Source: a virus (taxonomy: Duplodnaviria > Caudoviricetes). From it: a stretch of DNA of 55,723 nt. Of this stretch, positions 2,611 through 4,837 are shown piece after piece; within the stretch, counting starts at the first letter, position 1, and every line of letters begins with the position of its first letter. Position numbers and translations under genes: made by a program. The stretch lies in the IMG/VR virus record IMGVR_UViG_3300021197_001150, positions 1-55,723 of that record; one strand, written 5' to 3'. Below the pieces are notes generated by a model. It did no database searches. It was not told where the DNA came from and saw nothing but the letters and a program-made list of their open reading frames with translations.

Positions 2611-2687
2611 GCACCCGTAGCTCATCTGGATAGAGCGCCACTTTGCGGAAGTGGAGGTAATAGGTTCGAGTCCTGTCGGGTGCGCCA
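2611..2687 (+). tRNA. tRNA-Arg(GCG)
   Basis: Cloverleaf: GCACCCG/CGGGTGC acceptor, CCACT-TTGCGGA-AGTGG anticodon arm, TTCGAGT T-loop, A20, encoded CCA. Confidence 0.92.
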
Positions 2688-2768: not shown

Positions 2769-3599
2769 ATGACGCAGTTAATATCCCCAAATAAATTTAC
2801 GAACACAGTTGGCCTTTTAAGGTCATTTTTTTTGGACAAAGGATTCTTAGAAGTCCATACCCAAAACAGACTAAGCATACTTGCCGCATGTGAAGATCCA
2901 TTCAATGTAGCAACATACCAATACGCAGGCAACACTTGGCCATTGCCGCAAACAGGCCAGATGTGGTTAGAACATGAATTATTAAGTAGCCCCGATAGTA
3001 AGGGGTTTTTTTGTGTCTCCACTTCCTATAGACAAGAGCCTAATGCAATACCAGGCAGACATGATATAATATTTCCAATGTTTGAATTTGAGATGCCAGG
3101 TAGCATTGATGATCTTAAAGCAATGGAGTATGAACTATGTGAATACTTAGGCTTTGGTAACATTACAGAAAAGACTTATAGAGACTGGCAAGAGCATTAC
3201 GGACTTGACTGGATCAAAGAGATGGACGCTGAACATGAATTAAAGATGGCGGCAGACTTTGGTCAAACAATGATTACAGACTTTCCAGAGATGACATCAC
3301 CGTTTTGGAATATGAGTAGAAACGATGGCGGCGGCACAAGTAAAAAGATTGACGTTATCTTAGGTGGTATGGAAACTATTGGGTCAGCAGAGCGTTCATG
3401 TGACGTTGACATGATGCGTAATACATTCCACACAATTACAGATGGTGCTTATAGTGAACTACTGTTTAAACTGTTTGGCAAAGAACGTGTAGTAGCAGAA
3501 CTTGAAAAGTTTTTAGAGTTTGACTTCTTTCAAAGAGTAGGCGGTGGTATAGGTATTACACGTATGATCCCGGCATTAGAAAAGATCAATAAGATATAA
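2769..3599 (+). CDS. asnA: Asparagine synthetase A, AsnRS-paralog type (class II aaRS catalytic domain without anticodon-binding domain)
   Basis: LPQTGQMWLE, STSYRQE...RH...FPMFEFE (motif 2), METIGSAER, GGGIGITR (motif 3); no N-terminal OB fold; ATG at 2769 preferred over TTG 2742. Confidence 0.75.
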   Translation: MTQLISPNKFTNTVGLLRSFFLDKGFLEVHTQNRLSILAACEDPFNVATYQYAGNTWPLPQTGQMWLEHELLSSPDSKGFFCVSTSYRQEPNAIPGRHDIIFPMFEFEMPGSIDDLKAMEYELCEYLGFGNITEKTYRDWQEHYGLDWIKEMDAEHELKMAADFGQTMITDFPEMTSPFWNMSRNDGGGTSKKIDVILGGMETIGSAERSCDVDMMRNTFHTITDGAYSELLFKLFGKERVVAELEKFLEFDFFQRVGGGIGITRMIPALEKINKI

Positions 3600-3605
3600 A
3601 ACTAA

Positions 3606-3690
3606 TCTGGGGTGGTGAAATCGGTAAACACGCACGATTGTTTCTCGTGTGACGAAAGTCTTGGAGGTTCGAGTCCTTCCCCCAGAGCCA
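3606..3690 (+). tRNA. Atypical tRNA with Asn anticodon (GTT) and class II long variable arm
   Basis: TCTGGGG/CCCCAGA acceptor, G73, CCA; D-arm GTG/CAC; CACGA-TTGTTTC-TCGTG; variable arm GAC-GAAA-GTC; GGAGG-TTCGAGT-CCTTC. Confidence 0.85.
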
Positions 3691-3716
3691 ACTATTACCT
3701 AATAGATACACACTAT

Positions 3717-3745
3717 TAGACTTAGACATTTTTCTGTGCTATAAT
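3717..3745 (+). promoter_or_regulatory. Sigma70-type promoter (extended -10)
   Basis: TAGACT-17nt-TATAAT preceded by TG. Confidence 0.7.
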
Positions 3746-3772
3746 AATTTAAATATAGCATAAGGAGAAACC

Positions 3773-4837
3773 ATGCCACCACGTAATCATAAGAGTTGGT
3801 TAGCACAACCAAACGTAGAATCAATCAGCAGTTCAGCATATAACGATCCAGAAGTATTTGCACAAGAGCAAGAACGTATCTTTTCAAAGGTATGGGTACC
3901 TATGTGTCACAAATCGGAAATGCCTGAGCCAGGTAATTTTAGAACAACACAAATTGCAGGAGTTAATGTTATTGCAGTCAATAACGGTGACTCAATTAAG
4001 TCTTATTTGAATACAGGTAAGTTTAATACACCTTCAGGAACAATGACACGAGTAGAGTTTTTAATGGACGACTATACTCCGTTACCTACAGAAGTAAAAC
4101 ACGGAGGTATGGTATGGACAACACTTGATCCTAATCCTACGCAGAGTGTAGAAGAATGGACAGCAGGAGCATTTGATTGTATTGCAGATGCTATTGACAC
4201 AGAAGAAATGGAAGTGTTCCATTACCACAAAGCAATCATAGATACAAACTACAAACTATGGCATGATACTAACAGTGAATTCTATCATGACTTCATGCAC
4301 TACTTTAATCGTGTAAGTGGATTCAACGATGAATACTTTGCACGTAAGAATATACCTTTTGACAACGGTCATGTAAACGTAAGCAGTTTCACAGTAAACT
4401 ATGAGGAGTATGACGGCTTCGAAGATAGAGGTGAACTGTCCTTTCCTAATCTACCACCCAACCAATGGTATATGGTAGACTTGTTTCCCGGATTTAATTT
4501 TAATCTACGTGGAAGTGCATATCGTTCAGACTCAGTAACTCCATTAGGTCCTAACCGTGTACTGATTGAGTTTAGGGGATACGGACTAAAAAAAGATACT
4601 AAAGAAGAACGTTTGACACGAATCAAACATCACAACAGTATATGGGGACCATTTGGTCGCAACCTCCATGAGGATCTAATTGGAGTTGCTGGGCAAGGAA
4701 CAACTATGCGTGAAGGTACAGAGAACAGACGTGTACTGCATGGTAGACATGAGAACGGTACTATACATGATGAAGTTGGTATGCGCCATTACTATACCGA
4801 ATGGGGTAAGTATTTGGATATTAATCCTTATCAATAA
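3773..4837 (+). CDS. msmA: Methanesulfonate monooxygenase hydroxylase alpha subunit-like protein lacking the Rieske cluster
   Basis: EVFHYHKAIIDTNYKLWHDTNSEFYHDFMHYFNR and WGPFGRNLHEDL are near-identical to recalled MsmA; CxH/CxxH Rieske ligands absent. Confidence 0.85.
   Translation: MPPRNHKSWLAQPNVESISSSAYNDPEVFAQEQERIFSKVWVPMCHKSEMPEPGNFRTTQIAGVNVIAVNNGDSIKSYLNTGKFNTPSGTMTRVEFLMDDYTPLPTEVKHGGMVWTTLDPNPTQSVEEWTAGAFDCIADAIDTEEMEVFHYHKAIIDTNYKLWHDTNSEFYHDFMHYFNRVSGFNDEYFARKNIPFDNGHVNVSSFTVNYEEYDGFEDRGELSFPNLPPNQWYMVDLFPGFNFNLRGSAYRSDSVTPLGPNRVLIEFRGYGLKKDTKEERLTRIKHHNSIWGPFGRNLHEDLIGVAGQGTTMREGTENRRVLHGRHENGTIHDEVGMRHYYTEWGKYLDINPYQ

Follow-up and report, generated by a model that had tools for sequence, protein, structure and literature searches.

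The 55,723-nucleotide (nt) Caudoviricetes sequence IMGVR_UViG_3300021197_001150, analyzed here over its positions 1 to 55,723 (the window), encodes a class II (long-variable-arm) transfer RNA (tRNA) with the anticodon GUU at 3606-3690 on the forward strand. It lies directly behind a gene (2769-3599, forward strand) for a 276-amino-acid (aa) class IIb aminoacyl-tRNA-synthetase catalytic core lacking an anticodon-binding domain, and on sequence grounds the two genes are a two-gene phage cassette. The reading that we tentatively favor, at a little under an even chance, is that they form a dedicated pair: an asparagine (Asn) tRNA of the phage, charged by the enzyme encoded next to it. According to the textbook account, Leu, Ser, Tyr, and Sec are the only long-armed tRNAs of bacteria and their phages, and tRNA position 37 must be a purine; this molecule departs from both rules. 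An initial annotation of the window had described an Asn anticodon and acceptor end on a Leu-type long-armed body, with U37, and every feature it listed is present. Its account as a whole holds in part: the anatomy and the argument against decay stand, and of the several functions it offered, none was chosen.

The tRNA is recognized by ARAGORN, by Rfam, by a covariance model of its own family, and by covariation. ARAGORN finds only two tRNAs in the whole window, a tRNA-Arg(GCG) at 2611-2687 and the 85-nt tRNA-Asn(GTT) at 3606-3690 on the forward strand, the latter in answer to the isotype check proposed initially. With the Rfam tRNA model RF00005, 3606-3690 reaches 49.5 bits (E 5.4e-9; gathering score 29), and the family model (R1) gives it 90.4 bits. 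The acceptor stem has 7 base pairs (bp; 3606-3612 with 3680-3686), of which the first two are U1-A72 and C2-G71, and is followed by the discriminator G73 (3687) and an encoded CCA (3688-3690), both read directly from the sequence of the forward strand. In the D-arm, a 3-bp stem (GUG/CAC) carries an 11-nt loop, AAAUCGGUAAA. Below it, a 5-bp anticodon stem (CACGA/UCGUG) closes the loop UUGUUUC (3638-3644, also drawn in the ARAGORN cloverleaf), with U32, U33 (3639), G34 U35 U36 (3640-3642), U37 (3643), and C38 (3644). The variable region, the most variable part of the family, occupies 13 nt (3650-3662), with a 3-bp GAC/GUC stem and a GAAA loop. The T arm is normal, with a 5-bp stem and hence a 7/5 acceptor/T geometry.

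Contigs from runs of four studies (assembled contigs, not reads) reproduce the window tRNA, U37 included, which removes the early suspicion of an assembly error. Contigs X1, X2, and X5 cover 3515-3652 or 3515-3756 with no differences to the window; contig set X10 has three, and among those listed none is in the anticodon loop (3638-3644). RNA-library contigs (X5) span the tRNA region, although such contigs give no start, end, strand, or level, and so are not proof of transcription. Metagenome contigs break at 3651/3652 and 3662, then run on into other arm alleles; contig joints resembling strain mixtures were left unused.

The tRNA belongs to a family found in T4-like cyanophages, including the Prochlorococcus phages P-SSM2, P-SSM5, and P-SSM7. 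Each of these three has an 85-88-nt tRNA-Asn(GTT) directly behind a relative of the enzyme gene annotated as “tRNA ligase,” with the loop CUGUUUA, again with U37. More than 150 loci carry the family tRNA. Among 42 distinct tRNAs that were aligned, pairing is 100% in the acceptor, D, anticodon, and T stems, and 14 of the 20 pairs in these four stems show changes on both sides; for the whole written structure, 95.6% of cells are paired and both-sided changes occur in 20 of 30 pairs. In a shuffle control, none of 500 shuffles reached the observed covariation values, and slid partners pair only 36-62%. The search for covarying homologs suggested in the initial annotation thus yields 42 distinct sequences in which compensatory changes preserve the cloverleaf, and the annotation's point that intact stems speak against decay is borne out by their full pairing.

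Some positions do not vary at all. U1-A72 is found in 42 of 42 sequences, though acceptor pairs 2-7 all vary. G34 U35 U36 and G73 are likewise invariant in the 42 (G73 in all 73 family tRNAs), as are U8, A14, A15, G18, G19, the last base of the variable region (U48), and the T-loop core. The second acceptor pair is C2-G71 in 37 of 42 and G2-C71 in three. The CCA end is encoded in 70 of 73, the exceptions being P-SSM2, P-SSM5, and P-SSM7. G18 G19, the UUCGA T-loop, and the 7/5 geometry are canonical elongator traits. Homologs in related phages carry GUU, and the possibility raised at the outset, that homologs have Leu anticodons and the window copy is unique, falls away. The structure scripts and the tRNA search pattern require GTT in the loop, and counts derived from them are blind to other anticodons; independently of this filter, GTT is present in every downstream tRNA that was inspected by eye or detected with the covariance model.

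Family members were detected by direct reading of the DNA, by the structure script, and by the covariance model; a BLAST search with the 5′ half missed 29 sources through divergence. ARAGORN mislabels 100-nt members as Glu, Asp, Gly, or Stop, and missed three of six members on phage-like contigs binned into metagenome-assembled genomes (MAGs). A separate discrepancy concerns L001 (AY939844.2), whose tRNA-Asn is annotated at 164094-164179, inside another coding sequence; ARAGORN and Rfam place it at 162083-162168, right behind the “tRNA ligase” gene, and the latter placement is the one consistent with the order of the locus tags (198, 199, 200).

The body of the molecule resembles that of a tRNA-Leu. 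Its D-arm has exactly the sequence found in a phage tRNA-Leu(UAG) at L083. The family covariance model gives its members 74-115 bits, this tRNA-Leu 61, and an ordinary 73-nt tRNA-Asn (at L157) 42; its best hits in five bacterial genomes, at 63-70 bits, were tRNA-Leu in all eight checked. Judged from these sequence comparisons, the description of the body as Leu-type is correct. The features that matter for charging point elsewhere. In the accessible part of Giege and Eriani 2023 (PMC9976931), the anticodon plus G73 constitute bacterial Asn identity and can be moved onto a different tRNA body in E. coli. There, U1-A72 is a determinant and the 20a D-loop base an antideterminant for GatCAB; G73 is an antideterminant against leucyl- and tyrosyl-tRNA synthetases (LeuRS and TyrRS), and C2-G71 against seryl-tRNA synthetase (SerRS); and N6-threonylcarbamoyladenosine at position 37 (t6A37) is in yeast an antideterminant against aspartyl-tRNA synthetase (AspRS). 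A long arm together with G73 is described as the SerRS recognition pair in the part consulted of PMC7609411, and the Leu discriminator as A73 in that of PMC2377443. Given the G73 and C2-G71 antideterminants, the molecule would therefore be an Asn tRNA in which identity for Leu, Tyr, and, in most members, Ser is blocked.

Feature by feature, then, the molecule has the GUU, G73, and U1-A72 of a tRNA-Asn, without the short class I variable loop and A37; the class II body, Leu-type D-arm, and A15-U48 of a tRNA-Leu, without A73 or a Leu anticodon; and the long arm and G73 of a tRNA-Ser, without G2-C71 or a Ser anticodon. The family as a whole shares 7/5 arms and an encoded CCA with bacterial tRNA-Asn(GUU), in addition to the three identity features, but has a 12-38-nt arm, a Leu-type 3-bp D stem, and mostly a pyrimidine at 37. 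With bacterial tRNA-Leu it shares the D-arm, A15-U48, and a short extra arm, and it differs in G73, U1-A72, and the anticodon GUU. Also close are the Allo-tRNAs (PMC5389517, PMC7609411, as far as the available text goes), which were likewise found by sequence mining, partly in phages, and likewise combine a long-armed body with an anticodon normally carried by class I-shaped tRNAs. Those, however, have an 8/4 or 9/3 acceptor/T-stem arrangement and Ser or Ala identity, where the window tRNA has a 7-bp acceptor and a 5-bp T stem and the family has Asn elements and a dedicated neighboring enzyme. The phage tRNAs proposed to evade tRNases (PMC10264068) also have anticodon loops that depart from the host norm, but are of ordinary shape; the accessible part of that paper describes no class II remodeling, pyrimidine 37, or partner enzyme.

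What varies within the family was counted over 105 distinct enzyme-plus-tRNA combinations. Position 37 is U in 89, A in 13, and C in three; the 32/38 pair is C/A in 72 and U/C in 30, with three singletons; and position 33 is U in 102, C in two, and G in one. The three exceptions to U33, each known from one contig, have the loop CCGUUUA (L081, 3351-3451, and L090, 1182-1280) or CGGUUUA (L061, 3400-3500). The variable region ranges from 12 to 38 nt, short and long forms making up about half each. The long form has a stem of ~9-10 bp and a loop containing GCAA; many members have only 3 bp, and arm length is not conserved. A FastTree phylogeny of the enzymes requires at least 10 changes at position 37 and at least 18 each in arm class and in the 32/38 pair, and sister enzymes on very short branches (L248 and L080, for example) accompany different tRNA alleles. 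U37 is the state in every deep clade, with A37 confined to the largest (the root of the tree was not inferred). U37 in the window is thus genuine rather than a unique mutation, being the commonest and most deeply distributed state in the family, and since t6A37 cannot form on U37 or C37, the independence from t6A proposed in the initial annotation follows directly.

The variable arm is a hot spot, with alleles exchanged among nearly identical phages (L004-L083, L182-L261). Enlarged variable regions also occur on other cyanophage tRNAs: a tRNA-Trp(CCA) of 85 nt with a 13-nt region at two loci (L031, 1155-1239, and L057, 3105-3189), and a tRNA-Ile(UAU) of 94 nt with a variable region of ~24 nt at four, including L040 (3950-4043), L052 (3864-3957), and L071 (1407-1500). 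Such enlargement may be a more general trait of these phages.

The linkage of tRNA and enzyme gene was surveyed from both sides. IMG/VR contains at least 596 stretches that code for a relative of the enzyme; the best 80 of these, together with the window and three isolates, made up a set of 84 sources chosen by enzyme. The tRNA is directly downstream in 80 of the 84 (73 found by the strict structure script, five with a bulged T stem, one found by the covariance model, and one represented by its 5′ half at a contig end); one source ends at the open reading frame (ORF) and is untestable, and three show no family tRNA in the available DNA. A scan of IMG/VR that began from the tRNA returned 80 loci, of which five with <70 nt of upstream DNA were left out as untestable. 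The enzyme gene is directly upstream in all 75 others, within 200 nt by script in 73 and by inspection in L236, where it is cut by the contig end, and L256, where the gap is 230 nt; no family tRNA without the enzyme was found among these 75. The initial annotation had pointed to the adjacent protein encoded from 2769, and this proves to be the constant partner of the tRNA. In P-SSM2, with a genome of 252 kb, there is exactly one tRNA match, and it is the family tRNA, 9 nt past the enzyme gene. In the window the stop codon of the enzyme gene ends 6 nt ahead of the tRNA, and 276-aa homologs begin at the same ATG. No promoter-like or terminator-like site was seen between the ORF and the tRNA, which makes co-transcription plausible.

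The enzyme is identified by Pfam, by profile comparison, and by predicted fold. It matches Pfam tRNA-synt_2 at 1.8e-15, over the class II (D/K/N) core only, and class II motifs, including motifs 2 and 3, are conserved across 49 diverse family members. An N-terminal anticodon-binding (OB) domain is absent from the 276 aa, the Pfam and profile matches covering only the core. Against NCBIfam asnS it scores 29.6 bits, where the cut-off is 414, and it lies far below the curated cut-offs for asparaginyl-tRNA synthetase (AsnRS) and AspRS. A profile of the 49 members, searched against the PDB, gave 38 matches; the single protein alone reached only E ~1e-3. AsnRS from Brugia is the best match (9e-15), followed by the human enzyme and then by archaeal and eukaryotic AspRS. 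AS-AR (3p8t/1nnh) follows at 4e-7 and 1e-5 with partial coverage, and EpmA/GenX (3a5z, 3g1z) at ~1.5e-4. The 38 PDB matches do not include E. coli-type AsnA, and the window protein has no AsnA hit in Pfam or NCBIfam. The pocket motif LPQTGQMWLE aligns to LTQSSQLYLE of Brugia AsnRS, the equivalent in AspRS being QSPQLYKQ, so that the residue pair is Leu-Glu, as in AsnRS, and not Lys-Gln, as in AspRS. An AlphaFold2 model (predicted local distance difference test score, pLDDT, 95.9) is closest by Foldseek to AsnRS and AspRS cores, at template-modeling (TM) scores of 0.72-0.79. The protein is acidic, with a net charge of -16.

Two kinds of stand-alone core invite comparison. AS-AR is an archaeal AsnRS-like core that makes Asn. 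Like AsnA, it shares with the enzyme a stand-alone class II core of ~280-330 aa and the absence of an anticodon-binding domain; its match is, however, partial and far weaker than that to AsnRS, and AsnA is not matched. Neither is, to our knowledge, paired with a tRNA gene. EpmA/PoxA/GenX, which resembles lysyl-tRNA synthetase and modifies elongation factor P (EF-P), is also a class IIb core without an anticodon-binding domain, and its substrate is not an ordinary tRNA; it is of Lys rather than Asn type, and no link to EF-P was seen. A search with the enzyme gave >8000 clusters of proteins at 90% identity; in a full scan of cluster representatives, 672 clusters matched at E <=1e-3 and 437 at E <=1e-10. 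Homologs in the cluster sets and in the ESM Atlas have only generic names.

That the neighbor charges the tRNA is favored because the tRNA is never found without the enzyme, because it is the sole tRNA of P-SSM2, because the enzyme has an AsnRS-type pocket, and because the foreign body might suit the enzymes of the host poorly. The variable arm of a tRNA faces class II synthetases, and a foreign body might hinder the class IIb enzymes of the host, AsnRS and AspRS. The tRNA and the enzyme gene would be made on one transcript, and the synthetase core, with its AsnRS-type pocket, would charge the tRNA with asparagine via the acceptor end. The charged tRNA would then decode AAY codons during infection, presumably on the ribosome, and with a pyrimidine (U or C) at 37 would work without t6A37. 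The phage would thereby have its own supply of Asn-tRNA, independent of the synthetase or amidotransferase route of the host.

A good deal weighs against a dedicated pair, beginning with the enzyme itself, which has little visible means of holding a tRNA, there being no recognizable anticodon-binding domain and a predicted net charge of -16. Near-identical enzymes stand beside different tRNA alleles in the enzyme tree, with no sign of co-adaptation, and at L055, L056, and L076, all close phage relatives, the enzyme is intact and no family tRNA is found in the available DNA. For a ribosomal tRNA, a pyrimidine at 37 and the three variants without U33 would be odd. Long arms, to judge by tRNA-Trp(CCA) at 85 nt and tRNA-Ile(UAU) at 94 nt, seem not to be special to the cassette.

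The distribution of the enzyme outside the cyanophages also weighs against a dedicated pair. A scan of species-representative genomes gave 76 loci. Six of these are on phage-like contigs that had been binned into MAGs; their proteins are 65-81% identical, and all six carry the tRNA. The other 70 are in bacterial or archaeal assemblies, 44-64% identical, and have no family tRNA nearby. Two huge-phage loci, with enzymes 46-47% identical, have none either. The 70 loci come from Bacteroidota, bacteria of the candidate phyla radiation (CPR), DPANN archaea, Chlamydiota, Dependentiae, and Alphaproteobacteria, and in some cases the contig is 1.2-3.2 Mb long. In five genomes with tRNA-free loci the family model reached at most 69.8 bits, the level of tRNA-Leu, against 74-115 for members. 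The same five cellular genomes have a full-length AsnRS in four cases, AsnB in three, and AsnA in none. The neighbors of cellular homologs are metabolic: dihydroorotate dehydrogenase (twice), orotidine monophosphate (OMP) decarboxylase with a phosphoribosyltransferase (once), phosphoenolpyruvate (PEP) carboxykinase (twice), and an amidohydrolase (once). From this tRNA-free distribution it follows that, as far as sequences can tell, the ancestral job of the enzyme is independent of this tRNA; the analogy with AS-AR and AsnA suggests that it may be to make asparagine.

Two further observations belong with these loci. One bacterial MAG (L157, enzyme 44% identical) has an ordinary 73-nt tRNA-Asn(GTT) at 3521-3593, ~250 nt downstream of the enzyme gene, a proximity that by a rough estimate could be chance. 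The stand-alone AsnRS-like cores make up a large unnamed family (L091-L159), frequently encoded beside genes for pyrimidine synthesis or PEP carboxykinase, one CPR member of which (P0133) is labeled “transposase” at its source.

The main alternative, which we rate somewhat below the dedicated pair, is that the enzyme is a tRNA-independent, ammonia-dependent asparagine synthetase similar to AsnA or AS-AR, and that host enzymes charge an extra Asn tRNA. Either the host AsnRS, or a non-discriminating AspRS followed by GatCAB, would read GUU, G73, and U1-A72 and tolerate the body, and the two genes would travel together as both raise Asn incorporation. The wide occurrence of the enzyme without the tRNA, in metabolic neighborhoods, suits this well, as does the lack of AsnA in all five cellular genomes, two of which have AsnRS and are also without AsnB. 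So do the precedent of AS-AR, with its asparagine-forming core and family-profile match of 4e-7, the acidic character of the enzyme and its want of an RNA-binding domain, its indifference to the arm and loop alleles of the tRNA, and the three phage loci that hold the enzyme alone. Set against this are the enzyme at 75 of 75 testable tRNA loci, a profile far nearer AsnRS (9e-15) than AS-AR, with AsnA unmatched, and a long arm that by the usual structural rule could hinder host AsnRS or AspRS. The identity rules cut both ways: going by the accessible part of PMC9976931, the Asn identity set is transplantable and the invariant U1-A72 suits GatCAB, but the Leu-type D-loop has an extra base in the 20a region, which is a GatCAB antideterminant. 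Genomes with the ammonia-dependent AsnA use AsnRS to make Asn-tRNA without glutamine (Sheppard et al. 2008, PMC2330236, in the part available), and a glutamine-free route to Asn-tRNA would be gained by the phage whether the neighbor charges the tRNA or synthesizes asparagine.

It is improbable, though the anticodon loop lends it some color, that the molecule is a look-alike of tRNA-Asn with a role outside translation: a decoy or resistant substitute directed against an anticodon nuclease or a tRNA-targeting defense, or a substrate for a modification enzyme or a non-ribosomal process. The target protein would read G34 U35 U36, the acceptor end, or both, and ribosomal decoding would be secondary or absent. 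A pyrimidine at 37 in most members (U in 89 and C in three of 105), the C33 and G33 variants, and the enlarged arms of other tRNAs in related contigs are in keeping with such a role; and the fast turnover of positions 32, 37, and 38 and of the arm around a fixed GUU could result from an arms race. In all other respects the molecule is nonetheless a complete canonical elongator tRNA, with U33 in 102 of 105 and an encoded CCA, and the constant link to an AsnRS-like enzyme would be left unexplained. We know of no tRNA-Asn-targeting nuclease in picocyanobacteria, although no search for one was made, and this too counts against a decoy. Evasion of host tRNases through changes in the anticodon loop has been proposed for phage tRNAs, with mention of colicin E5, in the accessible part of PMC10264068.

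We give little credence to a self-contained glutamine-free device, in which host AspRS would load Asp on the phage tRNA and the neighboring core would amidate it with ammonium and ATP, bypassing GatCAB. Loading of Asp would be favored by GUU, G73, and the absence of t6A37, the antideterminant against yeast AspRS. If true, this would be a new kind of tRNA-dependent amidation enzyme, and a natural pair that ignores both anticodon and extra arm.

Recoding is very hard to credit: host SerRS or LeuRS would charge the class II body, or the neighbor would load another amino acid, and AAY codons would be read in part as something other than Asn. The SerRS pair of long arm and G73 (PMC7609411, in part), G2-C71 in three of 42 sequences, and the precedent of Allo-tRNAs with mismatched anticodons (PMC5389517, in the portion available) could be cited for it. 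But C2-G71, which opposes SerRS, is present in 37 of 42, and many members have an arm of no more than 3 bp, so that the Ser-recoding option of the initial annotation is disfavored; arm length, besides, is unconserved, and G73 opposes LeuRS and TyrRS. The partner enzyme, moreover, has an AsnRS pocket motif, and recoding of all Asn would harm the proteins of the phage, whose ORFs translate normally with table 11. That the sequence is a tRNA-like accident or a tRNA in decay, or that assembly made a chimera, is refuted by the covariation, the three cultured phages, the more than 150 loci, and the contigs of four studies.

Both genes had been annotated separately before. GenBank records of P-SSM2, P-SSM5, and P-SSM7 already include the tRNA-Asn, and a “tRNA ligase” (T4-GC 194) is listed for P-SSM2 and P-SSM7 (Sullivan 2010, PMC3037559, in the part seen). 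Asn(GTT) is among the commonest cyanomyovirus tRNAs, its shape undescribed (PMC3152331). The accessible portions of Sullivan 2005 (PMC1079782) and of a jumbo-phage survey (PMC7824862) contain nothing on the tRNA or the enzyme, and searches of the open-access literature, supplements excluded, turned up no description of the class II shape, U37, the fixed pairing with the enzyme, or the enzyme family. What appears to be new is therefore the combination and the shape in which this tRNA and synthetase-like gene occur. Two textbook rules, on which isoacceptors are class II and on a purine at 37, are broken here under clear selection, in viruses that are among the ocean's most abundant. If the neighbor does charge the tRNA, the cassette would be a natural synthetase-tRNA pair without anticodon recognition, with a bearing on the rebuilding of tRNA identity and of interest for the engineering of orthogonal pairs; cyanophages would also supply their own means of forming Asn-tRNA, which would link phage translation with the nitrogen status of the host. 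If the enzyme is instead an asparagine synthetase, the cassette would be a new auxiliary metabolic module, and a candidate function would be at hand for the large family, as yet unnamed, that spans bacteria, CPR, DPANN, and huge phages.

The surroundings of the cassette in the window include several recognizable elements. The tRNA-Arg(GCG) at 2611-2687 (forward strand; ARAGORN, Rfam) is ordinary and lies outside the cassette, with a terminator-like hairpin behind it at 2716-2731. Farther upstream, ~600 nt ahead of the cassette, a glutamine riboswitch aptamer (RF01739; 2113-2165, forward strand; 56 bits in Rfam against a gathering score of 35) is directly upstream of a 63-aa ORF (2188-2379); its position thus puts a nitrogen-sensing element near an Asn-related module. 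The gene after the cassette (3773-4837, forward strand), which has a promoter-like site at 3717-3745, matches only the catalytic domain of the alpha subunits of Rieske-type ring-hydroxylating oxygenases, and its product also has N-terminal similarity to glycine-betaine and anthranilate oxygenases.

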